32,000 nucleotides of DNA from an uncultured Phycisphaeraceae bacterium (GCA_964574815.1 CAZNPL010000003.1:100861-132860), one strand, 5' to 3'; shown: positions 3,210 to 32,000, counted from the stretch's first letter. Program-made: numbers and translations. The notes: a model not told the origin generated them from the sequence alone.

Positions 3210-3217
3210 GAGCTGTC

Positions 3218-4057: not shown

Positions 4058-4065
4058 GGTGAATC

Positions 4066-5275: not shown

Positions 5276-5287
5276 GAGGCCGTTGAC

Positions 5288-5719: not shown

Positions 5720-5721
5720 TC

Positions 5722-6431: not shown

Positions 6432-6441
6432 CGAGTGACGC

Positions 6442-8454: not shown

Positions 8455-8462
8455 GATGATCC

Positions 8463-9275: not shown

Positions 9276-9278
9276 CCG

Positions 9279-10088: not shown

Positions 10089-10100
10089 TGGAGCGACATC

Positions 10101-10532: not shown

Positions 10533-10548
10533 GGAGAGGTAGATAACA

Positions 10549-13283: not shown

Positions 13284-13289
13284 CGTGCT

Positions 13290-14513
13290 TCAAACCTCCT
13301 GTAAGGTGGCACAAGGGTCCAGCCGCGCGGCCCGCCGCGCCGGGAAATAGCTTGCCGCCAGCGCAATCACCACCGAGATACCCAGCGCCCAGACGAAGAG
13401 AACTGGCATGGGCAACACGGGGACACCCGCCAAGCGCGGGCCGAGGCCAACCGCGAGCACCGTGCCCAACAGGTAGCCGCAAATACCGCCGGCGAGGCCC
13501 AGGAGAAGGGCTTTCAGAAGGAACATATTCAGGATCAAGGATGTTCCGGCTCCGAGGGCCATTAGCGTCCCGATCTCCCGCCGCCGCTCGAAAACATTCG
13601 CGTACATGTAGTTGGCGATGCTCGCCCCGCCCACCAGCACGATGATGCCGACGAAGACCAGCGACAACCGGGCCATCATGCGGTTGGTGGTCACCTGCGT
13701 ATCGACGACCTGCGTCACCGTAACGACCTTGGCCTCGGGCAACAGTTTGTTGACCTTCTGCACCAGCCCGCCGGCGATTGCCTTGCAGCAGCCGACAATT
13801 TCGATCGCATTGATCACCGGACCCTTGCCCGCTAGCTCCTGAACCGTGTGCAGGTGCGCGAAGATACGCGAATCATCAACCGTGCCGGTCTCGGGCAGGA
13901 CGGCTGTAATCTCGAACGTTCGGCCGAGCACATCCAGCGCGTCTCCCTCTTTCACGCCGACAATCGACGCGACATCGGCGCCGATGAGCACTTCTTTGTC
14001 ACTCAAATCATCGACGACTCGCTGCCGAACGAGCGTTTCTTTGGCTTCGGGGTGCGTCGCGCCCGGAAGATCGGGTATGGTCCCGCAGCCTTCCGCCGGG
14101 TGGGCAAAAATACCCGCACCGGCCCACATGGCCTTGGCCTGGAACTCGCTCTTGGGGAGGATGCCGGTTAGCGTGAACGAGCGATCGCGCAGCATCACGG
14201 GCACCGACAGCTTGGGCGAGAGGTTGTCCAGCCCCTCCAGGTCGGACATCGCCAGGCGCAGAACGTATTCCTCGGGGAATTCGTCGCTTTGCATGTCGGC
14301 GCTGTAATAGTCCTGAATCGTGACCGACTTGGGAAGGACCAGCACATTGGCGCCGAGTCCGTCTAGCTGCCGGGCAACCGCCTTCTCGGAATAAAACGTA
14401 ATGTTCTTGATGGATACGACAACGGTGATGCCGAGCAGTATGGCCAGAAAGCTTGTAGCCAATTGGTTCTTGCGCTCGAACATCTCCCGCCATACGAGTT
14501 TTCGCAGGTGCAT
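13290..14513 (-). CDS. FtsX/MacB-type ABC permease with a large extracytoplasmic domain
   Basis: 407 aa. One N-terminal TM is followed by a ~245-aa loop and three C-terminal TMs (FERRREIGTLMALGAG... is the FtsX-domain signature). The loop carries C143 (EGCG) and C242-C243 (IVGCCK). Confidence 0.85.
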   Translation of the reverse strand: MHLRKLVWREMFERKNQLATSFLAILLGITVVVSIKNITFYSEKAVARQLDGLGANVLVLPKSVTIQDYYSADMQSDEFPEEYVLRLAMSDLEGLDNLSPKLSVPVMLRDRSFTLTGILPKSEFQAKAMWAGAGIFAHPAEGCGTIPDLPGATHPEAKETLVRQRVVDDLSDKEVLIGADVASIVGVKEGDALDVLGRTFEITAVLPETGTVDDSRIFAHLHTVQELAGKGPVINAIEIVGCCKAIAGGLVQKVNKLLPEAKVVTVTQVVDTQVTTNRMMARLSLVFVGIIVLVGGASIANYMYANVFERRREIGTLMALGAGTSLILNMFLLKALLLGLAGGICGYLLGTVLAVGLGPRLAGVPVLPMPVLFVWALGISVVIALAASYFPARRAARLDPCATLQEV

Positions 14514-14529
14514 ACGGGTCCCTTTCAGT

Positions 14530-15435
14530 TTACGGCTTCTTTACCGCGACGCCTGATGGGGTCTGAGGTTGCGAATTCGCCGGCTTGTTGCCCCCGCACG
14601 TGCTCGTGCCGCCGCCGCAGCAGCCGCCGCCCTTGGGTGGCGTTGCCGCCGCCACGATTGTGTTCTTGTCGGTCGCTCCTACGAACGTGCCCATGACCTT
14701 TCCAGGCGGCGCCAGCAAAACCGTGACCGCCTCCGGGTGGCTCTCACCGAGCCCAAACATCGTCAGGAAATCCACCTCATTCGCATCACTCGGATCAACC
14801 GTGACGACTTCGACGGATCGGGCGTACCGCGGATCCGCCACAAACTCACGTACCCCCTGCAACGCCTGGTCATTGAACTCAGTTTCTGCGTTTTGAACAC
14901 ATAATAGGACATACTTGCGATCCTGAAGCGCTTTCAGGCTCTTTTCGGCGCCCGGGCTGACGAACGCGGCGCGGAGTTGCTGCTCATCGAAGTTCGTGGT
15001 GAAACTCCGAGTGACGGCGCCGCTGGGTCCCATGGCAAGCACAAGCGGCATCGGCGCACGAGACAATCCGTATTTCGCCACCAGCGTCCGCTCCCGGACG
15101 TCCGTGACGTTCACGTCTGCGGAGTCCGCTCGATCTTCTAGGGCTTTCATCCCTGCGTCGAACGCCATGTGTGCAGCCCGTGTGGGCTCGTCATCGGCTC
15201 GATAGAAGAACAGGAAAGTGTACTTGCCGGCCATTGCCGCCCGGTCCATGATTGAGGCGGCGGATTCACTCATGCTATCGCCCGCGTTGCCCGCACCCGG
15301 AATGACGCTGTTCTCGACGGGCGCACCGTCGTTGATTGCGCTGGCGGGTGAATCACTCTGACCCAACGCAATGTTCCCGGAGAAAAGCACCGAAACCATT
15401 GCTACCATCGCTTCTGGGACCCACTTACGAGTCAT
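14530..15435 (-). CDS. Secreted protein with two thioredoxin-fold-like repeats (no CxxC) and a C-terminal CC-x6-C tail
   Basis: ATG 15435 has GGAG upstream and gives MTRKWVPEAMVAMVSVLFSGNIALG/QSD, a signal-peptide-like start. There are two similar units (KYTFLFFYRADDE...PLVLAMGPSGAVT and KYVLLCVQNAETE...VTVLLAPPGKVMGTF). The tail reads GGGCCGGGTSTCGGNK. Confidence 0.6.
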   Translation of the reverse strand: MTRKWVPEAMVAMVSVLFSGNIALGQSDSPASAINDGAPVENSVIPGAGNAGDSMSESAASIMDRAAMAGKYTFLFFYRADDEPTRAAHMAFDAGMKALEDRADSADVNVTDVRERTLVAKYGLSRAPMPLVLAMGPSGAVTRSFTTNFDEQQLRAAFVSPGAEKSLKALQDRKYVLLCVQNAETEFNDQALQGVREFVADPRYARSVEVVTVDPSDANEVDFLTMFGLGESHPEAVTVLLAPPGKVMGTFVGATDKNTIVAAATPPKGGGCCGGGTSTCGGNKPANSQPQTPSGVAVKKP

Positions 15436-15549
15436 CACTGGTTCTCCATGCCACGTACATTCCGCGTTCTTCCTCCAGTCGCTGCGCACCCGTCGTGGCG
15501 TAAGCCGCGCCGACCGGAACATCTTCTCGAATACCGCGCCCCGCGCGGA

Positions 15550-16053
15550 TCACATCCGTTTGTCGTGTGCTGGTTGCCCCTCAATTTCGCGGCGTGTTTT
15601 CCCTTGCGAAGTCGCCCGCGCGAAACCGCGCCCCTTCCCGGTCCGCGTCGCCGTTCCGTTTCGCCCCGCCTTGGCAGCCGGTGACTTTCGATGCCCATTG
15701 CCCGAAACACACTCGCCGCAGCGCCGGTTGCGCCCTTGGAGCGTTTGAAGAGCTTTCAGATCCGCAGCCGTCTGCGGAAAATCCGCCACCGTTTCCGCCA
15801 GCCATTCCACAACGCGCCGGTGCGTGGGCCCGTTCGGCTTCGCCAGGGAGTAGTACATCCACACGCCGTTGCGGCGGTCTTCGACGAGTCCGACGTTTCG
15901 CAAGTGCGCCAGGTGCCGCGAGGCTTTGGACTGCCCGATGTCGAGCACCGTGGTGAGATCGCACACGCACAACTCCCCCCGCGCAAGCAGGTTCAAGATG
16001 CGGAGGCGGGTCTCGTCAGCCAGCGAGCCAAAGAGTCGGGCAATGTTCTGCAT
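15550..16053 (-). CDS. arsR: ArsR/SmtB-family metalloregulator with CVC motif (ArsR1), long basic C-terminal extension
   Basis: The sequence LADETRLRILNLLARGELCVCDLTTVLDIGQSKASRHLAHLRNVGLVEDRRNGVWMYY shows the wHTH fold with an ELCVCDL metalloid-site motif. GGAG lies 7 nt upstream of the ATG. Confidence 0.85.
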   Translation of the reverse strand: MQNIARLFGSLADETRLRILNLLARGELCVCDLTTVLDIGQSKASRHLAHLRNVGLVEDRRNGVWMYYSLAKPNGPTHRRVVEWLAETVADFPQTAADLKALQTLQGRNRRCGECVSGNGHRKSPAAKAGRNGTATRTGKGRGFARATSQGKTRREIEGQPAHDKRM

Positions 16054-18444: not shown

Positions 18445-18885
18445 TCAGCGTTGCCGACGTTTGATCAGTCGGACGCACCTGCCCTTTCGGCAGAAGCTGA
18501 TTCTGTCTAGAAGAGACTGCATCAGGAGCAGCCCCCGTCCATGGGCGAGTTCGAGGTGTCGCGCGTCGGTCGGATCAGCAACCAGCGAGGGATCGAATCC
18601 CTCCCCTTCATCGATCACGCGGATTTCCGCCTCGTCATCGGCGATATGGTACTTGACAACGATCCATTTGTCGGGCACGCGGTGGTTGCCATGTAAATAT
18701 GCGTTGGCGAGGGCCTCCGAAAGGCCGAGCGTAAGAGCAAAGACCTCGGACTCCGAGCATTGTCTGCGCACCGCCTCAGCCGTTATCTCCGAGCGTACGT
18801 TGGCAATCTCCGAGTGCGTACTATGAATCGCCACTGTCTTGAAGTTCTTCACTCGGTGCTCTCGATCTTCGTCAGTCGCCTTCAT
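18445..18885 (-). CDS. RsbW/SpoIIAB-like anti-sigma-factor-type Ser kinase (HATPase_c_2-like)
   Basis: N-box-like SEALANAYLHGN, G1-like VIDEGEGFDP and G2-like AHGRGLLLM are present. GAGGAG lies 6 nt upstream of the ATG. Confidence 0.7.
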   Translation of the reverse strand: MKATDEDREHRVKNFKTVAIHSTHSEIANVRSEITAEAVRRQCSESEVFALTLGLSEALANAYLHGNHRVPDKWIVVKYHIADDEAEIRVIDEGEGFDPSLVADPTDARHLELAHGRGLLLMQSLLDRISFCRKGRCVRLIKRRQR

Positions 18886-18910: not shown

Positions 18911-19936
18911 TCAAGACGTCCTTTCGCAGGCTTCGGTCAGCTCCCTCAGCGATGGGTAGCTACCCTGTTTAATGATCTGACCATTGATTATCGTAATAGG
19001 CAGTTCGCTCGATCCTCGGCCCTCTTTCATGGCGCTCACAACGGTCTTGTTCTCCATGAATTTGTGGGGCTCCTTGTTGGGCACGACGCGATGGACAGCG
19101 ATGACGTTTCCAACCCGGCGCTCTAGGTGGGTGAGGGCTTGGTTAAAACGCATGAGTTCCTCGTACAAATCGGGACCGCACATCCCGCTAACGCAACACA
19201 TGGGCGGCGTAAACACTTCGATGGTCATATCGTAGCTGTCCGGCATTTGTGTCTCCGCGATATTGTGTATCTCGACCTCCGCCTGCCGGTCGGGGCGCGT
19301 CGCTGTTACTTCGCGGTCATCCCGCTTCAACGGAGGGACTCTGACCACGAAATTACTTACAAATCCGGAATCGTATTGCCGGAACTCAAGTTGCAGCCCA
19401 TCGAGAATGGCTGCAATTGCGTCGACGCGGCATGGGTTTTCGTAATGAGACTCGCCGCGTTCGGCGTTCTCGGCTCGTACCGCCAACAGGCCGCGGGAAT
19501 TGAGGTCAGCGATCGCGAGTACCCCCGACGGTCGGCACACGCGCACCATCTCCTCGAGAGCCGCGCGACAGTCCGGCATGTGATGTATCGAGTCGAACGA
19601 GAATACGGCGTCGAACGTCGCGGCAGCGAGCGGCAACCGCAGCGCGTCGGCATGGATGAAATCAACGCGGGCGGCAACATCCGAACCAACGGCCTTCAAT
19701 CGCTGCCGAGCGCGATCAAGCACACCTCGGTCGATATCCACGGTCACGACATTGAAACCGCGCTCGGCCAGGATCATCGCCATCCACCCCGAGCCTGTCC
19801 CGACGTCCAACACGTGTGACCCGGGAATGTCCCCGACCAATCGCACAAGGTCTGATCGGGCACGGACAGTATCGAAGCCGTACCGTTCCTTCAGCGCCTG
19901 CATGCTCGGTGTGACTCGATCCGTTTTCTCGGCCAT
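18911..19936 (-). CDS. Class I SAM-dependent methyltransferase fused in frame to a C-terminal ArsD metallochaperone domain
   Basis: ATG 19936 has GGGAG 7 nt upstream. The SAM motif is HVLDVGTGSGWMAMILAERGFNVVTVDID. No stop codon occurs before the ArsD domain MTIEVFTPPMCCVSGMCGP...INGQIIKQGSYPSLREL (18911-19228). An internal GGAGA-N5-ATG at 19246 could also give a stand-alone ArsD. Confidence 0.7.
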   Translation of the reverse strand: MAEKTDRVTPSMQALKERYGFDTVRARSDLVRLVGDIPGSHVLDVGTGSGWMAMILAERGFNVVTVDIDRGVLDRARQRLKAVGSDVAARVDFIHADALRLPLAAATFDAVFSFDSIHHMPDCRAALEEMVRVCRPSGVLAIADLNSRGLLAVRAENAERGESHYENPCRVDAIAAILDGLQLEFRQYDSGFVSNFVVRVPPLKRDDREVTATRPDRQAEVEIHNIAETQMPDSYDMTIEVFTPPMCCVSGMCGPDLYEELMRFNQALTHLERRVGNVIAVHRVVPNKEPHKFMENKTVVSAMKEGRGSSELPITIINGQIIKQGSYPSLRELTEACERTS

Positions 19937-20004
19937 ATTACGACTCCCGCGAGCGTCCCCTACGCGACGATTTCCGGCAATCTCTTGCACGATTGCTGTG
20001 CCCT

Positions 20005-20226
20005 TCAACCGCTCGTCTCGCGTTGGCCACACAACTCTCTCGACCCACGCGGATCTGCTACCACGGGCCGAGCGCTCTCCGAGGCGCAGTTCGGACATCG
20101 TATCCGATGGTCCTTTCCATACGCTGCCGACCTGGCCATGGAGGCATGGGACTCGAACAACTCGAAGCACTCGTCGCAGAAGTAGCAGTTCACCGATAGG
20201 TGTTTTTCGGTAACGCGCCTTTTCAT
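20005..20226 (-). CDS. Small zinc-ribbon protein (FmdB/CxxC-x(n)-CxxC type)
   Basis: 73 aa; AAAGGAAA lies 5 nt upstream of the ATG. YFCDECFELFE...IRCPNCAS fits the pattern Y-x-C-x2-C-x3-FE...CPxC. Confidence 0.5.
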   Translation of the reverse strand: MKRRVTEKHLSVNCYFCDECFELFESHASMARSAAYGKDHRIRCPNCASESARPVVADPRGSRELCGQRETSG

Positions 20227-22088: not shown

Positions 22089-22703
22089 TCAGCAGCAACC
22101 GCCGCTGTCGCCACAACAGCCGCCTTGCGGAGCGGCCTCCGGCATCAGGTGCTTCTGTGCAAGTCGGATCACGTTGTTGGTCGCCTGCTCCGATACCCGC
22201 AGGGCCACGTTGACGGCCTGAATCATGTCCTCGCTGGCGATGCCGAGTTCGACCGCCCTCCGGTGGTGATACCGAAAGCACGGCTCGCAATGAGCGGCGA
22301 CTGCCGCGCCCAGTGCGATCAGCTCGGCAACGCGCTCATCGTAGATCGGTGCCTGCTCGACCCGCGCAGCCTGCTGATCGGTTGCAGTCGAGTCTCTCCC
22401 ATTCAAACCGGCCAGTTCTGACAAACGCTCACGAGATGGGTATTCACCGTGACTGACCACGCTGCCGTCGATGACGACCACGGGCAGACCATCTCCATCG
22501 TTCTCGTCCAACACTCGCTTGACTTGCGGGTTTTGAGCGAAAGCGGCGGGCTCTTGCGCCAGGTTGAAACGTCGGACCTTCACTCCGCGGTCTTCAATCC
22601 ACTTGAGATCGGCGGTGAAGCGGGCCAGCCGCGGATCCGGCTCGGGACCACACACGCCGGTCGTACAGCACATGGGCGGATCGAAAACTTCAATACTGGT
22701 CAT
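22089..22703 (-). CDS. arsD: ArsD metallochaperone fused to a carboxymuconolactone decarboxylase/AhpD-like domain and a Cys-rich tail
   Basis: MTSIEVFDPPMCCTTGVCGP places Cys at positions 12, 13 and 18, as in ArsD. The C-terminal half ALGAAVAAHCEPCFRYHHRRAVELGIASEDM is a CMD/AhpD-type CxxC core. The tail reads GGCCGDSGGCC. AGGAAGGAAA lies upstream of the ATG. Confidence 0.85.
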   Translation of the reverse strand: MTSIEVFDPPMCCTTGVCGPEPDPRLARFTADLKWIEDRGVKVRRFNLAQEPAAFAQNPQVKRVLDENDGDGLPVVVIDGSVVSHGEYPSRERLSELAGLNGRDSTATDQQAARVEQAPIYDERVAELIALGAAVAAHCEPCFRYHHRRAVELGIASEDMIQAVNVALRVSEQATNNVIRLAQKHLMPEAAPQGGCCGDSGGCC

Positions 22704-22821
22704 CGTAAGTTTCCTTCCTGTTCAGGGTTGCCCGCGGGCTCATACACCCGTTGCTTTATCCCCGTGGTGTCCTCGTTCACTTCCACGTTCGCACCTGTCG
22801 ACCGACGCAGCCGGCGGCGGA

Positions 22822-23184
22822 CTAGCATCGATAACATGCGCATAACTCCTTGGGGTCCTGCTTGCGAATCTGTGCCAGGCTCTGATCGTCCGAGACCACG
22901 CGCGGCTCGCCGTCCAACGACTCCAGAACCCAGCGCAGCGCCCGCTTGGCGACGGGCGGAGTATCCTTTCCCGCCAGGCGGAAATAGTGCCAGCGGCCTT
23001 CCTTCCGGCGCTCGACCAGCCCCGCCGTCAGCAGCAGGTCGAGATGCTTGGAAACCGTGGAAGGCGCCAGCCCGAGCAACTCGACGACCTGACAGAGGCA
23101 CAGTTCGCCGTCTCGCAGGGCAAGCAGCGCCCGCACCCGCGTCTCGTCGCTGAGCGCCTTTGTGATCGTCAGGAATTCCCGCAT
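22822..23184 (-). CDS. arsR: ArsR/SmtB-family metalloregulator (ArsR2), CLC motif
   Basis: LSDETRVRALLALRDGELCLCQVVELLGLAPSTVSKHLDLLLTAGLVERRKEGRWHYF is the wHTH region; the C-terminus carries CACYRC. ATG 23184 (GGAG 6 nt upstream) is preferred over 23196. Confidence 0.85.
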   Translation of the reverse strand: MREFLTITKALSDETRVRALLALRDGELCLCQVVELLGLAPSTVSKHLDLLLTAGLVERRKEGRWHYFRLAGKDTPPVAKRALRWVLESLDGEPRVVSDDQSLAQIRKQDPKELCACYRC

Positions 23185-23198
23185 GGTTGGCTCCATTC

Positions 23199-23244
23199 AC
23201 TTCGTCATCCAACGAAGTATACGACAACTTCGTCACTTCGTCAA
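23199..23244 (-). promoter_or_regulatory. arsR2 promoter (TTGACG-17 nt-TATACT) with ACTTCGT/ACGAAGT operator repeats
   Basis: On the - strand, TTGACG is at 23244-23239 and TATACT at 23221-23216. The inverted repeat is ACTTCGT (23199-23205), N6, ACGAAGT (23212-23218). Two tandem ACTTCGTC copies (23227-23242) lie inside the spacer. Confidence 0.55.
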
Positions 23245-23337
23245 GAAACGAAATAGCCTTCGGTGATCTCCTAGCATTTTCCGTGCCAACCGTCACCAAC
23301 CTACCAAACTTCTGTGCTCACGATCCTGTTATGGCAC

Positions 23338-23388
23338 GAAAAATAAAGGAAAAATGATAATCCGCGGAAGTTGGACCGAAGTCCGCGG
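23338..23388 (-). terminator. Putative intrinsic terminator at the end of the RND operon
   Basis: On the - strand, the stem CCGCGGA/TCCGCGG (23388-23382 / 23368-23362) encloses a GGAC-UUCG-GUCC mini-hairpin. It is followed by AUUAUCAUUUUUCCUUUAUUUUU. Confidence 0.55.
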
Positions 23389-23411
23389 CGGCGGCGAATC
23401 GCCAGCGGCCT

Positions 23412-23744
23412 TCACAGGATTCTGAAAACGAACACGAGCGAGAAGTAAACACCTACGGCGATGAAGATGAACCCTGTCGCTGTCCGCGCCCAGCGTTCGA
23501 AGGTGGCCACCTGTTGGAACGCTCGGGCCACGACTCCCGCCCCGGCAGCGATGGCCAGCGCGAACAAGAGAACCGGCAGCGCCGTTCCCAACCCAGAGGC
23601 CAATGGGAGCAAGAAGCGAGACTCAAACTTGATCGAAATCGGCACCAGGCTGCCGAAGAACAGCGCCGCCGACGCGGGACAGAATGCGAGGGCGAACTCC
23701 CGCCGTTTCCAGGACGCGGCGGGCGCAATGGTCTTCGCAACCAT
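23412..23744 (-). CDS. Half-length CcdA/DsbD-superfamily-like membrane protein (3 TM); possibly a 5'-truncated remnant
   Basis: FALAFCPASAALFFGSLVPISI...LPLASGLGTALPVLLFALAIAAG...FERWARTATGFIFIAVGVYFSLVFVF resembles the C-terminal half of ~230-aa permeases of this superfamily. The start is uncertain (GTG 23768, ATG 23744 or GTG 23645) and the ORF overlaps the DGC ORF. Confidence 0.4.
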   Translation of the reverse strand: MVAKTIAPAASWKRREFALAFCPASAALFFGSLVPISIKFESRFLLPLASGLGTALPVLLFALAIAAGAGVVARAFQQVATFERWARTATGFIFIAVGVYFSLVFVFRIL

Positions 23745-23949
23745 CCAGCGCGATGCGCATGCCCGCACCCCGCGTTCGGACGAGCTTGTCCTCCTTCCCC
23801 GCGGCTATGGCGCTCAAGCAGAACATCTGCGCCACGCCCTCCTTGGTCAGGTCCAAGGCCGCTCGATTGGTGAGCTGCACGCAGTACGCCGCCCCGGCGC
23901 ACGCAAATACCAGCACCTCCCCGTCCACGGATCGACAGCAGGAACTCAT
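23623..23949 (-). CDS. DGC-domain (putative zinc/metal-binding, Cys-rich) protein
   Basis: 108 aa. ATG 23949 overlaps the RND stop (ATGA), with GGAGG 6 nt upstream. MSSCCRSVDGEVLVFACAGAAYCVQLTN...MFCLSAIAAG...RIALDGCEDHCARRVLETAGV matches the remembered DGC-domain pattern (FACSG...C...DGC..C). Confidence 0.65.
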   Translation of the reverse strand: MSSCCRSVDGEVLVFACAGAAYCVQLTNRAALDLTKEGVAQMFCLSAIAAGKEDKLVRTRGAGMRIALDGCEDHCARRVLETAGVRPRILSRVGGAVLRQPGADFDQV

Positions 23950-26900
23950 AGAACACCTCCATCTGGCGCGGTCGCTGTCCCGACACCGTGCTGCATTGAC
24001 CCTTGGATCAGGCCCACAGCGACGGCGGAAGGAGCGCGCCGCGTAAAGACCACGTACAGGCACGGCATCAGGAACAGGGCGACGGCCATCTCCATAAGCA
24101 GGCCGCCTATCGCGGCGGCGGCCATGGGCTGGAGCATGTCGCCGCCCTCCTCGATGGCCAGCGCGAGCGGAATAAAGCCAACCAGGATGGCGACGGTGGT
24201 CATGACGCGCGGGCGCAGGCGGATCTTCGCCGCCTGCACGACGGCGTTCCGCGGGGTCGTTCCCTCGCCGGCCCGCAGCGCGTTGGCGAAGGTCAGGAGC
24301 AACACGCCGTCGTTGACCGTGGCGGCCACAACCACCAGGACGCCGATGATGACCGTCGCCCCGAGCGGCAGGTCGGTGGCGAGCATGATGAAGACCAGCC
24401 CGGTCAGGCAGAACGGCACGCTGCCCAGGATGAGCGCGGGCAGCTTGAGGCTGTCGAACTGCACGGCCAAGACGATGAACGAAAAAAAGATTGCGAAGAC
24501 CAGGATCGCAAGCACCGTCTGCTGCATCTCGGCCATCATCTGCGCCTGCCCGCCGAAGCTGAAGTCGTACCCGACGGGGCGCTCTTTGCCCGCCAGGGAC
24601 GCCTGGAGTTCCGCCAGCGCCTGCCCGACGCTGACACCGGCGGCGTCGCCGCGCACGATGACCTCCTTGACCTGGTCTTCGCGCACGATCTCGACGGGGC
24701 CGACCGCCTCGCTGACCTCGGCTACGTCCTTGAGGCGCAGGTAGCCGCCCTGGGCGCAGTTGAGCGGGAGGTTCTCCACTTCGAGCCGACTGACGATCCT
24801 GCTCTCGGGGATCATGACGCGGATGTTGTAATACTCGTCGTGATCGCGAAAGCGCGTCGCGACCGCGCCGGTGATCAACGAACGCATGGTATCCGCGATA
24901 TCCGCGATGGAGACGCCCAGCTCCGCGGCCCGCTGTCGGTCTACAACCACCTGATATTCGGGTTTGGTCATGTCCATCGAGACATAGACGTTCGTAAAGT
25001 GCGCGAGCTCGTTCATCGAGCCGGCGGTCTGGCGAGCGAGACTGTAAAGGGTGGGGATATCCCGCCCCTTGATCTTCACTTCGATGTCGGCGTCGCCCAG
25101 CTTGCGGATGCCCTTGACCTTCATCTGCATGACCATGGCCATCCCGCCGGGGACCGGGACTTTGGCCACGATCGGACGCAGATAGTCGATGTAGGCCCGC
25201 GTGCTCACGTCGCGCTGGTGACGCGGGACGAGCTGGATATTCAGCTCACCTTCGTTGGCGATCTCGTAGGTGTACAACCCCCACACCTTGCCGCCCGACA
25301 GCGTGAACAGGCTCTCAATCCGCTCGTCCTCTCCGATGCGTTGCTCGAGTTGGGCCAGGACGGCGTCCGTCTCCGCCAGGGACGCGCCGGTCGGCAACTT
25401 CACCTTGACCATGATCCGGCCATCGTCCATCTGGGGCAGAAACTCGGTGCCCAACCGGCCCATCAGGAGAACGGCCAACACGAGTATCCCCACGAACGCG
25501 GGTATCGCGATCCAGCGTCCGCGGATCGCCTTCTCCAGTGTCCAGCCGTAAGCCTCGGTTACCCGCTCGAAAAAGCGCTCGAAGCGGGCGACTTTGCGGC
25601 TTCCTGTCGCCCGGCCTAACACGAGGGCCGTGATCATCGGCGTCACAGTAACCGCCATGGCCAGGCTAATGATGACGATGCCCGCGATAACCAGGATCAA
25701 CTCGCGAAACAGCAGACTGACCAGGCCAGGCACCAGCAAAAACGGCACGAACAGCGCCAGGAACGATAGCGTGGCGGCTACGATGGCCGGGCCGATTTCT
25801 GCCGTGGCATCGACGACCACCGCGTCGGTTGGGGCGTCCGGGCGGTCGTGTCGGCGGCGCGTGATGGTCTCAATGACGACAATCGAGTTGTCCACCAGAA
25901 CGCCGATCGCAATCACCAGTCCGCCCAGCGAAAAGATGTTGAGTGAGAAACCCGCCACTTTCATCAGGCCGAAGTTCAGAACGAGCGTCAGCGGCAAAGC
26001 CAGCATGATGACCAGCACCTGTCGCCACGAACCGAGGAACAACCAGACGATGAGAATGACCAAGATCGCTGCTTCGACCGCCGCATTGCGCACGCCGTTC
26101 AGCGCGGCCTCAACATAATCCGCCTGGTTCTCGACCATGCCCAGGCTCACGCCTTCCGGCATGGCGGGGCCGAGTTCGGCGATCCGGCCGTTGACGGCTT
26201 TGGCCACTTCGACGGTATTGGCATTGGCCTGCTTGAGCACGCTCAGCTTTACGCAGGGGTTGCCGTCCAACCGCGTGATGACCCGCGCCTCTTCGTGCGA
26301 ATCGAGCACCTCGGCCACATCACGCAAATAGACCTTCTTCTGGTCTTCACGAACGAGCAGGACATCTCGGATCTCATCAAGCGATTTGTATTCGCCCATC
26401 GCACGGGCGATGATCTCCTTGGGCCCCACGGTCACGCGCCCGCCGAACTGCTCGATGTTCTCGGCTCGCAATCGTTGCAGAACGCCCGGCAGCGACAGGC
26501 CGTACTTCTCCAGGGCGTCCGGATCGAGATGCACGCGGATTTCCCGCTTGAGGCCGCCGACGATCTCTGTGCCTGCCACGCCCGGGACGGCCAGCAGTTG
26601 GTCCTGGAGCCATTCATCCACCCAGGTGCGCAGTTTCGTCAGGTCCCATTGCTCGCTGCTGATGGTCAACTGCACGACGGGAAGCTGTGAGGGGTCCGCC
26701 TTGATCATCACCGGCGGATCCATGTCCTTGGGCAGCTCGCGTGCCACGCGGGCCATGGCAGCCAGCGCGTCCTGATACGCCACATCCACGTTCACGCCGT
26801 ACTTGAAGTTGGCCTGTAGCGTGTACATGCCCTCGATGGACGACGACTCGAGGTAGTCCAGGTCGTCCACCGTGGCCATCTGGCGCTCGATCGGATCGGC

Positions 26901-27089
26901 GATGTTCTTATCGATCTCCTCCGGCGTGGCGCCGCGCCACCAGATGTGTACCTTGATCATGGGGTAGGTGATGTTCGGCAGGAAGTCCACTGGCAGACGC
27001 CATAGGCCGTAGAGCCCAAGCACCACCAAGGCCACGACAATCGCGCTGGTGGCCAGACGTCGATGAACGGCATAGTGCGTCAGCTTCAT
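23946..27089 (-). CDS. RND efflux transporter inner-membrane subunit (AcrB/HAE-like)
   Basis: 1047 aa with 12-TM RND architecture. The N-terminus reads RRLATSAIVVALVVLGLYGLWRLPVDFLPNITYPMIKV, and the TM4 region reads GGLVIAIGVLVDNSIVVIETITRR. Confidence 0.9.
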   Translation of the reverse strand: MKLTHYAVHRRLATSAIVVALVVLGLYGLWRLPVDFLPNITYPMIKVHIWWRGATPEEIDKNIADPIERQMATVDDLDYLESSSIEGMYTLQANFKYGVNVDVAYQDALAAMARVARELPKDMDPPVMIKADPSQLPVVQLTISSEQWDLTKLRTWVDEWLQDQLLAVPGVAGTEIVGGLKREIRVHLDPDALEKYGLSLPGVLQRLRAENIEQFGGRVTVGPKEIIARAMGEYKSLDEIRDVLLVREDQKKVYLRDVAEVLDSHEEARVITRLDGNPCVKLSVLKQANANTVEVAKAVNGRIAELGPAMPEGVSLGMVENQADYVEAALNGVRNAAVEAAILVILIVWLFLGSWRQVLVIMLALPLTLVLNFGLMKVAGFSLNIFSLGGLVIAIGVLVDNSIVVIETITRRRHDRPDAPTDAVVVDATAEIGPAIVAATLSFLALFVPFLLVPGLVSLLFRELILVIAGIVIISLAMAVTVTPMITALVLGRATGSRKVARFERFFERVTEAYGWTLEKAIRGRWIAIPAFVGILVLAVLLMGRLGTEFLPQMDDGRIMVKVKLPTGASLAETDAVLAQLEQRIGEDERIESLFTLSGGKVWGLYTYEIANEGELNIQLVPRHQRDVSTRAYIDYLRPIVAKVPVPGGMAMVMQMKVKGIRKLGDADIEVKIKGRDIPTLYSLARQTAGSMNELAHFTNVYVSMDMTKPEYQVVVDRQRAAELGVSIADIADTMRSLITGAVATRFRDHDEYYNIRVMIPESRIVSRLEVENLPLNCAQGGYLRLKDVAEVSEAVGPVEIVREDQVKEVIVRGDAAGVSVGQALAELQASLAGKERPVGYDFSFGGQAQMMAEMQQTVLAILVFAIFFSFIVLAVQFDSLKLPALILGSVPFCLTGLVFIMLATDLPLGATVIIGVLVVVAATVNDGVLLLTFANALRAGEGTTPRNAVVQAAKIRLRPRVMTTVAILVGFIPLALAIEEGGDMLQPMAAAAIGGLLMEMAVALFLMPCLYVVFTRRAPSAVAVGLIQGSMQHGVGTATAPDGGVL

Positions 27090-28441
27090 GGCGTAGCGCC
27101 TTCCCTCCCCGCCGGTGTGCTTGTACCTGCTTCAGGTTTGCCAGCCGGCTTGCCGGGCCCCGCTACGCGCACTTCGATGCCGTCCTTGAGCTTCTCCTGC
27201 CCGGCGATGACGACCTTCTCTCCTACCTCCAGACCGGTCAGCACTTGCACCCGACCAATCTGTTCGATACCGGTTCGAACCTTTCTCTGGATGGCCTTGC
27301 CGTCAACGACGACAAACACTGCTTGGGCGCCAGTCGGCGTCACGCTGACTGCCTGGAGCGGTACAGTCACGGCACCGTCTACAAACTCCAGCTCCAGCCT
27401 GACGCGCGCGAACATGCCCGGCATCAGCGCCACCGGCTGGTCCAAGACCAGTTCAACGGTCCGCGTCCGCATCCTGCGATCCAGCTCGGGGTAGACGCGC
27501 GTTACCTTTCCCGTGAAGCTCTTGCCCGGCAGCGCATCCAGAACGACGGCGGCCGCGGTCCCCTCCTGCACTGCGGGCACATGCGCCTCCGGCACAGCCA
27601 CGCGGATTACGAGCGATGACAGGTCGGCCATTTCCAGCAACGGCGCTCTCGGCGCGGCCATATCACCGGCCCGTACATGCACGCGCGTGATCGTGCCGGA
27701 GAAGGGAGCCAGGATCACACACTCGCCGAAACGGGCCCGTGCCAGATCCAGCTTGGCATCGGCCTCTTTGACCACCGCCTCTTGCACAGCAATCGCCGTG
27801 CGCGTGTAACCCTCCTCGAGCATTTCCAGGTTACGCCTGGCGGCGGAAAGCTTGGCCTGTTCCGCGACGTACTCCACGCGTGCCTTGTCCAGCGCCTCAC
27901 CGGGTAGCGAGCCGCTTTCCACGAGCTGCGTGATGCGTTCGAGATCGCTCTTGGCGAAGTTGGCGCTCTCTTCGAGCTGGCGGACGGTCTCCGTAGCCTT
28001 CAGGATTTCCTCCGGGCGCGTCCCCGCTTTCAGGTCTTCCAGCTTGGCCGTGGCTACTTCCAATGCGGCCTCGGCCGCCTTGACCTCGGCGCGATAGACC
28101 TCTCGGCTGATCTCGATGAGCTTCGTGGGGCTCTCGGCCGTCGACTCCACGCGGTCGCCTTCGCGCCAGGGACAGTAGCTGATCGGACCCTCGACCGTGG
28201 CGGCAATGACAACTGACTCGACCGCCACCGTTTCGCCGGTCAGGTCAAGCTCACGGGATATCCGTTCGTGTTGTGCTGTTTCAACGGCGACTGTGGGGAT
28301 CTTCTTCTTGCCTCCAACCCCCGTTCCGTCCTGCGTGCCGCCACAGCCACCGAGGTTTGCAGACCACACTACCCCGGCCGCCCAAAGCACCAGAAGAAGA
28401 CCTCCGCGAGCCGTCGTTGCATGCCACCACGCGTTTTTCAT
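27086..28441 (-). CDS. RND periplasmic adaptor (MFP/HlyD family), lipoprotein
   Basis: 451 aa. The signal and lipobox read LLLVLWAAGVVWSANLGGC. Coiled-coil hairpin and barrel regions are typical of MFPs. ATGA overlaps occur at both ends. Confidence 0.85.
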   Translation of the reverse strand: MKNAWWHATTARGGLLLVLWAAGVVWSANLGGCGGTQDGTGVGGKKKIPTVAVETAQHERISRELDLTGETVAVESVVIAATVEGPISYCPWREGDRVESTAESPTKLIEISREVYRAEVKAAEAALEVATAKLEDLKAGTRPEEILKATETVRQLEESANFAKSDLERITQLVESGSLPGEALDKARVEYVAEQAKLSAARRNLEMLEEGYTRTAIAVQEAVVKEADAKLDLARARFGECVILAPFSGTITRVHVRAGDMAAPRAPLLEMADLSSLVIRVAVPEAHVPAVQEGTAAAVVLDALPGKSFTGKVTRVYPELDRRMRTRTVELVLDQPVALMPGMFARVRLELEFVDGAVTVPLQAVSVTPTGAQAVFVVVDGKAIQRKVRTGIEQIGRVQVLTGLEVGEKVVIAGQEKLKDGIEVRVAGPGKPAGKPEAGTSTPAGREGATP

Positions 28442-29895
28442 TGCTCACCCGTCGCCAGCTTCAACTCTTGCAGCGCCACGTCGTGATCAGCCAACGCGTT
28501 GAAATACGTCGTCTGTGCGTTGAGCATCGCCGTCTGCGCATCCAATACGTCCGTGATTGAGCCTTTTGCGAGCGCATATTTCTCACGCTCAATCCGCAGG
28601 CTCTCTTCGCCCTGGGAGATCGCCGCTTGAGTGGCGAGCACGCGCTCCCTTGCCGACTGGATGTTCTGATTTGCTGTCTCGACATCCAGTTCGATCTGAA
28701 GCTCCAGCTCCAACAGGTTACTTCGCGCGGCCGCCAGCAGGGCACGTTGCTCACGAATCTGGGCAGTGATGCGCCCCCCAGTAAATAGCGGAACGTCGAC
28801 CAGCAGTAGCACGCTCGCAACGTCTTCTTCTCGATCCCCGTCGGTCGAAGAGTTTGTGGAATCGGACGCGCCCTGCTCCTGGCTTCCACCGGTGGCCTGG
28901 AAAGTTGGACTGGCCGCCCAGCGGTATCCGTACGCCCCGTGCAGCGTCACGGTCGGCCACCGCGCGCCACGCGCCACGTCCACGCGCTTGGCCTGCGCTT
29001 CCAGCGCGGCGCGGGCAGCCTGGTAGTCCGACCGTTGCTCAAAGGCGCGCGCGAGGGATTCACCCACCTCTGGGGGCTCGGCATCGAGCTGGCGTAGCTC
29101 GCCCGCAGGCGTCACCGGCTGGCTGGAGCCGGCGATCCCGATGAGACTCGTCAGCGTTCGCTCCTGGATCACCAGGAGGCTCCGCTGCTTCGCAAGTTGC
29201 TGCTCGATATCGGCGAGACGCACTTCAATCCGCAGACGGTCAACCGGTGCCGCCTTCTGAACCTCAATGAGCTCGTTCACGCGTCGCAGATGTTCGCGCA
29301 TCGCATTCCGTGAAAACTCGAGCGACGCGATCACGTGTCTTTGAGCCAGGATGCGATAGAACACGCTGCTGACGTTGAACACCAGCTCATTTTCGGTCCG
29401 GGCAAGCCGATGTCGGGCCGCGCCTTCGAGCAACTCGCGGGCTTTGATCTCGCCGATCAGCCGTCCTCCGGCAAACAACGGCATGCTGACAACGAGGTCG
29501 GTCGCGAAGATATCGTCGTCGAACACTCCCGCCTCGCCAGACGCACGCGCTGGAACCAACCTCTGGTCGTCGAGTGAATGTATGTACCCGCCCCGCAGTC
29601 CCAATTCCGGCAGTATGGCCCCAATTGAGTAATCCCGTCGCGCCTCCGCGGCTTCGACCTCCTGGGCCGCACGTGCAAGCCCAGGATTCGATCCGAGCGC
29701 CGTGGCGATCGCCTGCTCCAACGTGATGGGACCGCTCAAGGTTGGCTGCTCCCGGATCGTCGACCGGTCACGGTGACCCTGGTACCGGGAACCCGCGTGC
29801 ATACCCGCATAAGGGTCGGTGGGATTCATAAGTACGCAGCCCTGTAGCAGCAGGACGCCAGCCATACACGCGGTTCGTTGCAATGATCCTCTCAT
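28438..29895 (-). CDS. Outer-membrane efflux factor, NodT/OprM-type lipoprotein (TolC family)
   Basis: ATG 29895 has GAGGTGG 8 nt upstream and gives MRGSLQRTACMAGVLLLQGC, which ends in a lipobox. Two TolC-like repeats follow, and the C-terminal FNALADHDVALQELKLATG is typical. The ORF-track start at 29907 is a GTG. Confidence 0.85.
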   Translation of the reverse strand: MRGSLQRTACMAGVLLLQGCVLMNPTDPYAGMHAGSRYQGHRDRSTIREQPTLSGPITLEQAIATALGSNPGLARAAQEVEAAEARRDYSIGAILPELGLRGGYIHSLDDQRLVPARASGEAGVFDDDIFATDLVVSMPLFAGGRLIGEIKARELLEGAARHRLARTENELVFNVSSVFYRILAQRHVIASLEFSRNAMREHLRRVNELIEVQKAAPVDRLRIEVRLADIEQQLAKQRSLLVIQERTLTSLIGIAGSSQPVTPAGELRQLDAEPPEVGESLARAFEQRSDYQAARAALEAQAKRVDVARGARWPTVTLHGAYGYRWAASPTFQATGGSQEQGASDSTNSSTDGDREEDVASVLLLVDVPLFTGGRITAQIREQRALLAAARSNLLELELQIELDVETANQNIQSARERVLATQAAISQGEESLRIEREKYALAKGSITDVLDAQTAMLNAQTTYFNALADHDVALQELKLATGEQ

Positions 29896-30217
29896 CCGTG
29901 CGGCCACCTCACTTCGCCGATGCCATCCCGGCGCGGGCGCTCTTTATCCTTGTTCATCGCAACGGCCGCAAGCCGGCACCAAGGTTGTAAATCCCAGCAA
30001 ACATCGGCAGGCCTCCTCGATTCGCTCCGCACGCTGGACAACCCGGCAAGTTTTATGGCGACATGTCCATTTAGCCATATAAATGACCAAAAAGAAACGG
30101 TCGTCCCGCGCCCCGCAGGCCCGCAGGCCCGCCTGCCGCGTTTCTCGCTTCCGTGCATGGTTCTCTCACCGCGGCGCCTGCCGCCAACCCCTCATGCTCA
30201 CGGGGCCGTTACTCCGC

Positions 30218-30547
30218 TCATCGCAAGGCCGCCTGCTGGGTCTTCAGGTTCTCCGCCAGCACGCCCTCGATGCAGTCCCAGAATCCCGCCAGGCAGCAAA
30301 CCTTGACGCGGTAGTACACCATGACCCCTTGCTTGCGATCTTCCACCAAGCCGGCCTGCTTGAGCACCGCCAGATGCTTCGAGACCGTCGACTGGTCCGC
30401 CCCGACCAGCTCCGTCAGATCGCAGACGCACCGTTCCTTCTGCTCCAGGGCCTCCAGCACCAGCAGCCGGCTCGGATGCGCCATCGCCTTGGCGATCCTC
30501 GCCCGCGCCACATATCGCTCCCGGCTGTGTTTCTGCCTGTTTTTCAT
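30218..30547 (-). CDS. arsR: ArsR/SmtB-family metalloregulator (ArsR3), CVC motif plus C-terminal CC-x6-C
   Basis: IAKAMAHPSRLLVLEALEQKERCVCDLTELVGADQSTVSKHLAVLKQAGLVEDRKQGVMVYY is the wHTH region; the C-terminal part carries VKVCCLAGFWDC. Confidence 0.85.
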   Translation of the reverse strand: MKNRQKHSRERYVARARIAKAMAHPSRLLVLEALEQKERCVCDLTELVGADQSTVSKHLAVLKQAGLVEDRKQGVMVYYRVKVCCLAGFWDCIEGVLAENLKTQQAALR

Positions 30548-30550
30548 GGC

Positions 30551-30587
30551 TCTATGGCCATTATACCATAGAATATGCCGAAGTCAA
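30551..30587 (-). promoter_or_regulatory. arsR3 promoter (TTGACT-16 nt-TATAAT) embraced by an inverted-repeat operator; near-leaderless
   Basis: On the - strand, TTGACT is at 30587-30582 and TATAAT at 30565-30560. The inverted repeat TCTATGG (30551-30557), N8, CCATAGA (30566-30572) flanks the -10 box. Only 12 nt separate the -10 box from the ATG, and no SD is present. Confidence 0.6.
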
Positions 30588-30857
30588 ACGCCGGCTCCTG
30601 TCCGGTGCCACGTGTCCGCCGCGGAACGTGATGGGGCGGACGGGAAAGCGGACCGGACGGGTATCGCGCGCCCATGCCGGCCCATCCTGCGGTTACCTTC
30701 CGGGCTGGGCTCGCAACCCCGACGCTTCAACTCGCCCGGGCGAATCAAACCACATGGGTCAGGTTCTTCAAAGCGAGGCATACGCGAAATTTCTCTCTCT
30801 TCGTCGCGAGACTTATGTTCGAGGACGGTGGTGTTTCCTCTATAAGGGCCTGGAGAT

Positions 30858-30879
30858 AACCTCGACGTAAGTCGAGGTT
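30858..30879. other. Perfect 9-bp stem / GTAA-loop hairpin of unknown function
   Basis: The sequence is aacctcgac-gtaa-gtcgaggtt. No adjacent U-tract and no flanking gene are present. Confidence 0.4.
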
Positions 30880-32000
30880 TCTCATGCGCTTACATCAATT
30901 CCGGCAACACCGACCGTGACGCCCTACCACCGTCCGACCCCGCGCTTGTGACGGGGCGGTCGCATGCTCAAACCCCGTCGACGCTACACTGGCCGCGCCT
31001 CCGGGCTCCAGCCCGCACGTCGTTGGTGGGGCGCTGTCATAGCAACCGAGGATCCAGTGCCGCACTCGTTGGGCGCTACGAAGGGGATTCGAGATACGAT
31101 CTCTGGAAGCCATGCCGATCGGCGCCGCCGCTGAGTTCAACCGTCGGGTCTTCGTGTCGGCCCGCGAGATGCGCAGCATTCTGTCAGACGGCTTTGCACT
31201 CGACCCTCTCGGGCGCGCTCCCGGCATCACAGCCTCTCGCTATAAACTCACTGACGGAGAACACCAAGGGTAGACGGCATCATCTCCCCGGTCTCGGATC
31301 CGTTCTGCGCATCCTGCCGGCGCATCCGACTCACCGCCGATGGACTCCTTTTCCCAAACCTGATGAGCGAAGACGCTGTGCACATGAATGACGCATGGAT
31401 GAACGACGGCTTGGATGCGGAGACCGCCAGCCGATTGCCGCAATATGGGGTGGAGCGGAAGCGCCCTTATGGCGCATCTCAGTTGACGCCGATGAATGAC
31501 CTGGGCGGGTGATTACTCCTCACGGTCCGAGGGCAGGCTCGGACTAAAGTCGCAGATCTGTGCCTCGTCCTGAGCTATCGCATCCCAAAACGTGCGAAGG
31601 TTGGGTCAGCGCGTAGTAGTCAAGGCCGAGCGTCCGCGCGGTTCTGCAAAGCCCGTACGCACCGGCGAGCCTCAGCGCCGACGTTCATAGCCGTTTGGCG
31701 ATACGCGAGTGGCTCTTGCGCGTCCGGCGCCATCGCTCGAAGCGTCGCTGACTCGCCTCAAGGCGGGCAGGAATCACTTGGCTCTTCGTGGATCTCTTCA
31801 GCCGTCCTCCAGACCACCCTCGGTCCGGGGCTGACAATACCGGCCCGCTGAAACCGCTTCATGCACGCTTACCGCAAGGACAAAGGGTCTCGCTGTTTCC
31901 TTCAGCAGGCATCTCCCCACGAATCATCTCTTCGCGTGGCGAAGGGCAAGAAAAGAAGGTGCGGCTCACAAATTCTTTCAGTCGTCTTCAGGGGATATTT

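Follow-up and report, generated by a model that had tools for sequence, protein, structure and literature searches.

We analysed a 32,000-nucleotide stretch of DNA from an uncultured Phycisphaeraceae bacterium (GCA_964574815.1 CAZNPL010000003.1:100861-132860), hereafter the window, whose coordinates are used throughout. Between positions 23412 and 30587 it carries arsR3, a gene for an ArsR-type repressor, followed by the genes of a complete tripartite efflux pump made of an outer-membrane factor (OMF), a periplasmic adaptor or membrane fusion protein (MFP) and a permease of the RND superfamily. We regard this pump as an RND efflux system set apart by a distinct core signature and by conserved wiring to ArsR, ArsP and ArsEFG genes. 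It belongs to a clade that is horizontally mobile and hitherto uncharacterised. That ArsR3 runs the pump operon and that the cargo is an arsenical or antimonial has, in our judgement, about an even chance of being right. An initial annotation of the same DNA had described an ArsR-gated RND pump coupled to a dedicated Cys-rich partner of the DGC family; the idea of ArsR gating gained ground in our analysis, and the DGC partner was lost to it, the local gene order being a deletion scar.

All genes of the pump unit, from arsR3 to a terminal open reading frame (ORF) with a DGC match, lie on the minus strand. arsR3 (30218-30547) encodes a 109-aa ArsR/SmtB repressor with an HTH_5 domain (PF01022, 62 bits), which passes the winged-helix family cutoff of NF033788 (92.3 bits against 55). 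The OMF gene (28438-29907) encodes 489 aa with two PF02321 OEP domains (180 bits; the TIGR01844 score of 143 bits is below cutoff), the MFP gene (27086-28441) encodes 451 aa (TIGR01730, 200 bits against a cutoff of 95), and the RND permease gene (23946-27089) encodes 1047 aa that match PF00873 over its full length (residues 5-1015, 794 bits). The three components that define a tripartite efflux system of the RND superfamily are thus encoded together. Both the OMF and the MFP are probable lipoproteins, with the lipoboxes LLQGC and NLGGC, respectively; the lipobox Cys is kept in the closest OMF and MFP orthologues, the MFP lipobox is kept in Planctomycetota relatives, and close OMF orthologues keep the motif GC(V/A)LI.PTDPY. 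Stop and start codons overlap as ATGA, read directly from the sequence, at 28441-28438 (OMF/MFP), 27089-27086 (MFP/RND) and 23949-23946 (RND/terminal ORF), and the first two of these 4-nt overlaps are also found in relatives. The genes and overlaps listed in the initial annotation are all confirmed by these data, as are the lipoboxes of its two lipoproteins. Upstream, arsR3 is preceded by a sigma-70-like promoter at 30560-30587 on the minus strand (TTGACT-16-TATAAT with a TG extension, 11/12 consensus positions). Downstream, a promoter-like site at 23216-23244, also on the minus strand (TTGACG-17-TATACT), belongs to the next unit, arsR2-arsD/CMD-arsA (CMD, carboxymuconolactone decarboxylase), and marks the limit of the pump operon. 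Since the promoters at 30587-30560 and 23244-23216 bracket the region, 23412-30587 plausibly forms one transcription unit, with arsR3 first and the complete OMF-MFP-RND pump after it. An Rfam scan of 22700-31500 gave no match.

To place the permease among RND pumps, we compared it with subfamily models and with the E. coli proteins AcrB, MdtB, MdtC and CusA (sequences from NC_000913.3), to which it is 25-26% identical throughout. Firstly, it reaches no NCBIfam RND subfamily cutoff. The multidrug subfamily models NF000282/NF033617 score 563 and 677 bits (cutoff 1250 each), the HAE-1 model TIGR00915 scores 496 bits (cutoff 940) and the CusA/CzcA model TIGR00914 scores 441 bits (cutoff 701), so that the pump falls short of the HAE-1 and of the heavy-metal efflux (HME) family alike. 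Its best solved relative is MdtB (370 bits), and in architecture, in its full-length PF00873 match and in the conservation of AcrB R971, R973 and T978 it resembles AcrAB-TolC and MdtABC. Secondly, the membrane core departs from both reference types. In transmembrane helix 4 (TM4), V399-D-N-S-I-V-V405, D400-N401 align with AcrB D407-D408; in TM10, N926-D927 align with AcrB K940-N941 and CusA E939-F940; the TM11 region contains R957, R959, R961 and T964, and R961 aligns with AcrB I975 and CusA K984. Hence the proton relay of HAE-1 pumps is incomplete: D400, R957 and T964 are present, whereas D408 is replaced by N401 and K940 by N926. With its single TM4 Asp, acidic TM10 residue and basic TM11 residue at the position of CusA K984, the core recalls the charge relay of CusA, D400 and R961 aligning exactly with D405 and K984; D/E927 is one position off E939, and the likeness is an analogy, which does not make the mechanisms homologous. 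The initial annotation had placed TM4 closer to AcrB than to CzcA: its reading of VDNSIVV holds, and the model scores lean to the multidrug side over CusA/CzcA (677 against 441 bits), but no cutoff is reached, and D408 and K940 are absent.

Thirdly, positions 400 and 961 covary perfectly: of 120 sequences, the 15 in which S or C stands at 400 are precisely those with L or I at 961. This pattern suggests an ion pair, together with a subgroup that would have lost it. The D400 codon lies at 25890-25888 and the R961 codon at 24207-24205, on the minus strand of the window. Fourthly, outgroups with 33-42% identity mostly carry VDN(S/A)IV, VNNAI and RLRPILMT, and against this background D/E927 (TM10) and R961 (TM11) are clade-specific, that is, a gained Asp and a gained Arg. 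VDNSIVV was considered as a special motif in its own right and dropped, since a large group of DN/NN-type RND proteins ordinarily carries it in TM4. Neither could an identity gap serve as proof of a separate family: among plasmids identity falls from 68% to 32%, yet an exhaustive HMMER search returned graded relatives at 55, 48, 44, 42, 41, 39 and 37% identity, with the bulk at 29-35%. Because the relatives form such a graded series, we define the clade by its D927/R961 signature and not by a gap.

At positions aligned with the Phe-rich distal pocket of AcrB, the permease has Q135, V177, E320, G600, V602 and N/D617 (an alignment at 25% identity, indicative only), and E81, E175, E613 and K562 are conserved near pocket-aligned positions; these polar and charged residues argue against a generic hydrophobic-drug pump. 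The CusA Met triad M573/M623/M672 is absent as well, the aligned positions being K562, a gap and K663, and there is no conserved Met pair. A Met-rich site of the Cu/Ag type was considered, many Met being conserved in the clade, and was rejected: clade members are 73-92% identical, and Met is not enriched, the periplasmic Met content (3.6%) being that of AcrB. By scores and residues the pump is neither AcrB-type nor CusA/CzcA-type, with a DN/NN-type core to which the clade-specific pair of Asp (TM10) and Arg (TM11) has been added.

We then determined how widely the pump occurs and in which company. Over 120 clusters of proteins share 73-92% identity with the RND permease, and an exact-sequence lookup of the window protein returned no existing record. 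Clade loci were recovered with clade-specific peptide patterns and their flanks annotated by BLASTP with the proteins of the window and of loci L001, L002 and L003. A genome scan gave 80 loci with a clade RND gene (60-94% identity), all in metagenome-assembled genomes (MAGs) and many on contigs of several hundred kb. They span at least 9 phyla, and hosts include Planctomycetota, Thermodesulfobacteriota, Myxococcota, Ignavibacteria, Sumerlaeota, Zixibacteria, Nitrospirota, Fibrobacterota, Acidobacteriota and others, taxonomy being that of the MAG bin labels. The neighbour frequencies that follow refer to 10 kb around the RND gene and are given first for all 80 loci and then for those whose RND proteins are 73% or more identical; they are rough, resting on our own query set, and 19 loci are cut by contig ends. 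ArsR genes were found in 46% and 58%, ArsP_1-family permeases in 36% and 47%, Thioredoxin_3 (ArsE) in 36% and 58%, DGC in 26% and 42%, ArsF-like proteins in 20% and 42%, and DsbD_2/ArsG in 21% and 44%; over all loci, Acr3 was present in 14% and ArsC in 11%. By NCBIfam models the neighbours include a small thioredoxin of the MTH895/ArsE type (TIGR00412), ArsF (NF040494) and ArsG (NF040495, 304 bits against a cutoff of 200). An unbroken ArsR>(ArsP)>OMF>MFP>RND chain occurs in 17 loci, and in a neighbour-joining tree the crown of the clade is occupied by ars-type contexts, which turn up sporadically in its basal branches. Of the arsR-OMF-MFP-RND-DGC order for which the initial annotation had proposed a search, the part arsR-(arsP)-OMF-MFP-RND recurs, and a DGC gene directly 3' of the pump is seen elsewhere in L018 only.

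In the window itself the pump stands in a clear arsenic island. Acr3 (TIGR00832, 407 bits, cutoff 283), ArsD (NF033727, 121 bits, cutoff 90), ArsA, an ArsC-like protein and two further ArsR genes lie on the same strand within 12 kb. The island comprises ArsR2, an ArsD-CMD fusion, ArsA, a methyltransferase-ArsD fusion and an HATPase-like protein, and further Acr3, a universal stress protein, ArsR1, a MacB-type ABC exporter and ArsC. In locus L094 (89% identity) the pump lies between ArsA, universal stress protein, methyltransferase and HATPase genes on one side and an ArsR-MacB-ABC module on the other; the parts of the window are thus present in a different order, which means that the components of the island shuffle.

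The sensor and its candidate binding sites were examined next. ArsR3 shares the winged-helix HTH_5 fold family of the R773 and E. coli ArsR proteins, and its C40-V-C42 motif, in helix alpha-3, aligns with C32/C34 of E. coli ArsR. Unlike that protein, it has no Cys at the C37 position, where T45 stands, and it has C84, C85 and C93 near the C-terminus. An additional Cys near the C-terminus is also a feature of AfArsR-type repressors. In an alignment of E. coli ArsR with 18 orthologues of ArsR3, C40, C42, C85 and C93 are conserved, C85 and C93 falling just after the wing, and these four Cys mark off a subfamily of its own. ArsR3 falls below every NCBIfam equivalog cutoff; the As(III)-type ArsR model PRK10141 gives it 48 bits where 97 are required. 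The CVC motif is also present in CadC-type Cd sensors, and the four-Cys pattern would suit an As(III)/Sb(III) site and, equally, an S4 metal site.

Two operator-like palindromes accompany the genes. O1 (30546-30572) contains ATGG-N8-CCAT twice, overlapping, and a 7-bp inverted repeat, TCTATGG-N8-CCATAGA, extends over the -10 box and the start codon of arsR3. O2 (30051-30082, core ATGG-N8-CCAT at 30055-30070) lies in the 310-nt spacer between arsR3 and the pump genes, 148 nt upstream of the OMF start codon. The 32-kb window holds three matches to ATGG-N8-CCAT, where 0.41 are expected and none of 100 shuffles reaches three, and all three fall in the arsR3 promoter or in the arsR3-OMF spacer. Promoters of ArsR3 orthologues show TTGAC(A/T) followed by [A/T]TGG-N8-CCA[A/T] embedding the -10 box. 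This degenerate palindrome has 92 matches in 1.37 Mb of related loci: 17 at the starts of ArsR3 orthologues, 10 at 40-56 nt upstream of arsP, and two directly upstream of the OMF gene, between the -35 and -10 boxes, in L007 and L009. These two loci, the closest relatives, carry upstream of the OMF gene a near-identical counterpart of O2, ATGGCGACATGGCCAT. In the window O2 is retained and the promoter hexamers that flank it are degraded, for which reason pump expression probably relies on read-through from the arsR3 promoter. A remnant of arsP was sought in the 310-nt spacer by tblastn and blastn, and none was found there. Since the palindrome pattern holds both in the window and across related loci, it supports control by ArsR; and given the recurrent synteny, the 17 unbroken chains and the conserved palindromes, the link between ArsR and the RND pump is not a local accident. 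The gating of the pump by ArsR, as first annotated, is supported by this combination, ArsR lying within 10 kb of the pump in 46% of the 80 loci.

On this basis we propose the following scheme. ArsR3 would be autoregulated, repressing from O1, over its own -10 box, and from O2, before the pump genes, and would be released by a thiophilic ligand. Inner-membrane carriers, Acr3 with ArsA/ArsD in the window and ArsP in relatives, would bring a thiophilic metalloid to the periplasm. OMF-MFP-RND would then act as a second export stage, across the outer membrane, powered by protons via D400, D927 and R961, and its cargo would most likely be a trivalent arsenical, an antimonial or an organoarsenical. 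In relatives a further module recurs, composed of a cytoplasmic CxxC thioredoxin (ArsE), a CcdA/DsbD-like membrane protein (ArsG/DsbD_TM) and secreted CxxC proteins of the ArsF/Trx-fold type. From its domains this module looks like a route that passes reducing power to the periplasm, and so fits a periplasm-centred detoxification scheme. In its widest form the proposal is that no RND family before this clade has been devoted to arsenicals, and that OMF-MFP-RND is the half that crosses the outer membrane in a two-step efflux route for arsenic or organoarsenicals begun by ArsP or Acr3, with a four-Cys ArsR, a TGG-N8-CCA operator and an ArsE/ArsG/ArsF (+DGC) thiol-reducing chain, all spread as a cassette among anaerobes of many phyla; we advance this tentatively, at somewhat short of an even chance.

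The proposal bears on how arsenic resistance is understood. Bacterial arsenic efflux is currently explained wholly by single-component inner-membrane carriers, which in diderms leaves the toxic species in the periplasm. The transporters listed for ars operons are Acr3, ArsB, ArsG, ArsJ, ArsK, ArsP, ArsQ as well as ArsW, without any RND pump (PMC9144182), and ArsP (PF03773) is an organoarsenical exporter family (PMC7176098). Our literature search found neither an ars-linked RND pump nor a link between PF08859, the DGC family, and arsenic, most subscription papers being outside the search, so that this absence is not proof. Like the carriers ArsP (TC 2.A.119), ArsG, Acr3 and ArsB, the pump goes with an ArsR-type regulator; its clade shares operons with ArsP- and ArsG-family genes, and Acr3 lies in the same island. 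Unlike these single-component inner-membrane carriers, it is a trans-envelope tripartite pump. If the proposal is correct, a conserved, ArsR-wired tripartite pump would supply a trans-envelope step in arsenic or soft-metal resistance, and would account for the joint occurrence of ArsP-type permeases, periplasm-directed thiol reductases and an RND pump in sediment anaerobes. Testable handles are available in the clade's defined putative operator, four-Cys sensor, covarying Asp/Arg pair and at least one cultured carrier (Sulfuricella, pSCD).

Part of this assembly has a described counterpart, the ArsEFG module of Shewanella putrefaciens, for which PMC9144182 cites Chen, Zhang and Rosen (2019). 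The pump neighbours in related loci match the ArsE, ArsF and ArsG models, and the window keeps the 3' end of arsG. Unlike ArsEFG, the module is destroyed by a deletion in the window, and in relatives a DGC gene and the RND pump are added to it. Neither of these two, as far as we know, is part of the described ArsEFG system.

Several observations weigh against an arsenical cargo or against ArsR3 control. As(III) binds to thiolates, but a conserved Cys pair is missing from the periplasmic domain of the permease: C279 alone is conserved in that domain (100/121 sequences), and the invariant C894 and C1010 sit in the membrane domain. The carboxylates E81, E175, E320 and E613 at pocket-aligned positions suit cations better than arsenite. 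The best solved relative of ArsR3, at only 47 bits, is Listeria Lmo1102, which has the same ELCVCD motif and which we take to be a CadC-type Cd sensor, although the search tool does not annotate it so. ArsP_1-family relatives include the Cu/Zn exporter SO_0444. Within the operon, arsR3 is separated from the pump genes by the 310-nt spacer, and the internal promoter of L007 and L009 is degraded in the window, so that co-transcription of arsR3 and the pump is assumed. Basal clade members (60-70% identity) often lack an ars-type neighbour and carry a divergent Crp/FNR regulator in the place of ArsR, from which it follows that the pump family is tied to different sensors by lineage. In two Desulfobacterota MAGs, L046 (6614-7261) and L049 (6498-7160), this Crp/FNR gene is divergent from OMF-MFP-RND and replaces the ArsR gene. 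Lastly, the sole cultured and plasmid-borne member, on pSCD of Sulfuricella denitrificans (68% identity), has neither ArsR nor Acr3 nearby; a CDF transporter lies directly upstream of its TolC-MFP-RND genes, with Trx, CcdA, TauE, FmdE and YeeE around. The segment of this plasmid that was compared (L093; skB26 plasmid pSCD, NC_022358.1, 30750-57800) has Trx, CcdA, OsmC, TauE, FmdE, ABC, SufD and CDF upstream of the pump, an Fe-S flavoprotein, YeeE/YedE and DUF6691 downstream of it, and an adjoining plasmid F-type ATPase operon.

Some of these points would be expected if the pump worked as CzcCBA or CusCBA do and cleared the periplasm of a soft metal cation (Cd, Zn, Pb, Hg, Cu or Ag). In that case the four Cys of ArsR3 would serve to sense metal, an ArsP_1 permease or a CDF protein would provide the inner-membrane stage, and the island would reflect the clustering of metal genes. 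We consider this alternative unlikely, though deserving to be taken seriously. The four conserved Cys of ArsR3 suffice for an S4 site, and its closest solved relative, Lmo1102, has the ELCVCD motif too; ArsR3 nevertheless has no N-terminal Cys pair of the kind found in CadC-type sensors. ArsP_1 neighbours score equally against the SO_0444 Cu/Zn efflux family, the CDF gene directly upstream of the pSCD pump is reminiscent of HME systems with inner-membrane exporters, and source databases label the DGC protein 'putative zinc-binding protein'. On the side of the permease, the Asp(TM4)/acid(TM10)/base(TM11) arrangement resembles D405/E939/K984 of CusA, and the pocket carboxylates are conserved; but TIGR00914 gives the lowest score of the four RND models, the Met triad and pairs are absent with no enrichment in Met, and the nearest outgroups are DN/NN-type multidrug-like pumps. 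The repeated co-location with Acr3, ArsC, ArsA/ArsD and ArsE/F/G also speaks for arsenic and against a soft metal. As systems, CusCFBA and CzcCBA are the closest in layout, being tripartite pumps encoded beside a metal-responsive regulator, and with CopA, CzcD or ZntA they follow the same two-step logic in which an inner-membrane carrier feeds a pump from the periplasm to the outside. The present operon differs from these systems in having an ArsR-type regulator instead of a two-component system, in lacking a CusF-like gene and in its multidrug-like outgroups, and its permease differs from CusA in an identity of ~26% and a missed HME cutoff.

The periplasmic thiol chemistry around the pump could also be read as the core of a thiol- or sulfur-stress system, exporting reactive S or Se species, thiol adducts or thio-metalloids under a BigR/SqrR-like persulfide or redox switch. 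The neighbours indeed form a CcdA/DsbD-type electron route to the periplasm, YeeE/YedE, TauE and FmdE genes recur beside the pump, and the hosts, judged from record titles, are anaerobes of sulfidic habitats. ArsR3 matches the BigR model weakly (50 bits) and a BigR structure at 40 bits, but the cutoff of that model, 155 bits, is far above, and the conserved CVC is the classic site for metalloids and metals in ArsR and CadC. Arsenic islands are, moreover, unmistakable in the window and in several relatives, and we know of no precedent for an RND pump that exports sulfur species. This reading is improbable.

More doubtful still is an ordinary multidrug or solvent pump of the HAE type that has landed in a mosaic resistance island, with ArsR3 regulating only itself. 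It would agree with the best HMM matches, which are multidrug RND models, with MdtB as best solved relative, with the many basal clade members lacking ars-type neighbours, and with the rearranged state of the island, seen in the deletion junction and in the differing gene orders of L007, L009 and L094. It does not agree with same-operon synteny of ArsR, ArsP and the pump across at least 9 phyla, or with an operator-like palindrome directly before the pump genes even where arsR is not adjacent. The permease, for its part, lacks the aromatic drug pocket of AcrB and reaches no multidrug family cutoff.

We finally examined the 3' end of the unit, where the initial annotation had seen a 108-aa DGC protein coupled to the pump. 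The ORF (23623-23949, minus strand) does begin with MSSCC and does match the Pfam DGC family (PF08859, 71.6 bits against a cutoff of 27), but the gene is not intact: of the 106 positions in the profile, the match takes in 1-76. Missing are strand beta-4, the C-terminal helix and, by alignment with homologues, six near-invariant residues (D88, H90, G98, K101, P103 and P106), whereas the four invariant Cys of the family (C17, C44, C71 and C75) are retained. Three short or partial entries excepted, the 35 other DGC homologues retrieved are 123-141 aa long, one being 212 aa. The nearest full-length protein, P0122 (124 aa, 61% identical), continues with LELAGLPVDVHVVLTTDLGMEKKP, where the window protein departs after ...LETAGV into ~22 unrelated residues that are 5'-truncated arsG read in the wrong frame. 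An AlphaFold (AF2) model of P0122 (pLDDT 93) shows a four-stranded alpha/beta domain, and this fold has no significant match among solved structures. The homologous part of the window gene, residues 1 to ~83, is thus confined to 23701-23949 on the minus strand, after which the ORF runs out of frame to 23623.

What follows is the 3' remnant of an arsG gene of the DsbD_2 family (23412-23696, minus strand; residues 136-225 of ~225, the last 40%), which the initial annotation, correct about the RND/DGC overlap, had missed together with the deletion. An ORF at 23412-23768, in another frame and overlapping the DGC ORF, matches positions 136-224 of the 225 of the ArsG model NF040495, with 103 bits against a cutoff of 200, short of a full-length ArsG; the remnant is 45-56% identical to full-length ArsG of other loci. 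By BLASTN, DNA homology to DGC genes stops at 23701 and homology to arsG begins at 23696; these breakpoints and the reading frames place the deletion junction at 23696-23701. An independently assembled Logan contig, L087, has the identical junction (100% identity over 3077 nt), which excludes an artefact of one assembly. The N-terminal half of arsG was found nowhere in the window, and neither were arsP, arsE and arsF. Because the usual layout in relatives is ArsE-DGC-ArsF-ArsG, we infer a deletion of roughly 1 kb that would have taken the 3' end of DGC, arsF and the first 135 codons of arsG. Mapping it against an intact close relative was tried and abandoned, the best DGC (61% protein identity) and the best arsG (56%) being too distant, and with no closer locus for either gene the size is an estimate from that layout. 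A possible terminator 3' of the arsG remnant (23339-23388, minus strand), with a hairpin CCGCGGA...TCCGCGG and a T-rich tract, was likewise set aside: hairpin and tract are present, yet the folding is no better than that of shuffled sequence (z-score -0.08), and the scanner does not accept a loop of that length.

In other loci DGC adjoins ArsE (Trx3), ArsF, ArsG or ArsP and not the pump, which makes the RND/DGC ATGA coupling a local trait of a rearranged 3' end. The RND>DGC order recurs only in L018, where the DGC gene is full length, does not overlap that of the RND permease and has debris of a transposase and an integrase behind it; and DGC occurs without any RND gene in L088 (DGC-Trx3-Trx::MerB-DsbD_TM). 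RND pumps such as AcrB and CusA, besides, take their substrates from the periplasm or the outer leaflet instead of receiving them from a chaperone in the cytoplasm. A dedicated cytoplasmic Cys-rich partner handing substrate to the RND protein, as suggested by the ATGA join, the four retained Cys, the RND>DGC order of L018 and a DGC gene no more than 10 kb from the pump in 26-42% of loci, is therefore very improbable, and the bioinformatic evidence largely refutes it. The initial annotation had made its claim depend on a DGC gene that is indispensable and co-conserved with the pump, and the DGC half of the claim fails on that count. The DGC gene and the arsG fragment appear to be deletion debris and not functional partners of the pump. 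In L088 (1296-2642) the closest full-length DGC gene, that of P0122, is followed by Trx3, a fusion of thioredoxin with MerB (alkylmercury lyase) and DsbD_TM, a gene order which hints that the DGC/Trx/DsbD module may handle organometal or organometalloid compounds.

Other parts of the window were noted in passing. On the minus strand, 12552-16053 holds a second unusual exporter: the genes run from ArsR1 through one for a secreted protein of 330 aa to those for a MacB/FtsX-type permease and an ABC ATPase, with ArsC after them. The 330-aa protein matches the thioredoxin fold (AhpC/TSA) weakly and bears a GGGCCGGGTSTCGG tail at its C-terminus. Elsewhere this module recurs within 10 kb of a clade RND gene in at least 14 loci, of which only 9 showed a homologue of the 330-aa protein. 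Also on the minus strand are a gene for ArsD fused to a carboxymuconolactone-decarboxylase/AhpD-like domain with CxxC (22089-22703), a SAM methyltransferase gene with a C-terminal ArsD domain (18911-20170) and, between the Acr3 and methyltransferase-ArsD genes, a gene for an HATPase_c_2 protein resembling anti-sigma-factor kinases (18445-18885), which is kept in the same neighbourhood in L094 (4492-4977). Next to the arsenic island, on the plus strand, stands a block of phage-like structural genes (18-11745) that includes Phage_capsid_4, a tail tube protein and large ORFs without annotation.

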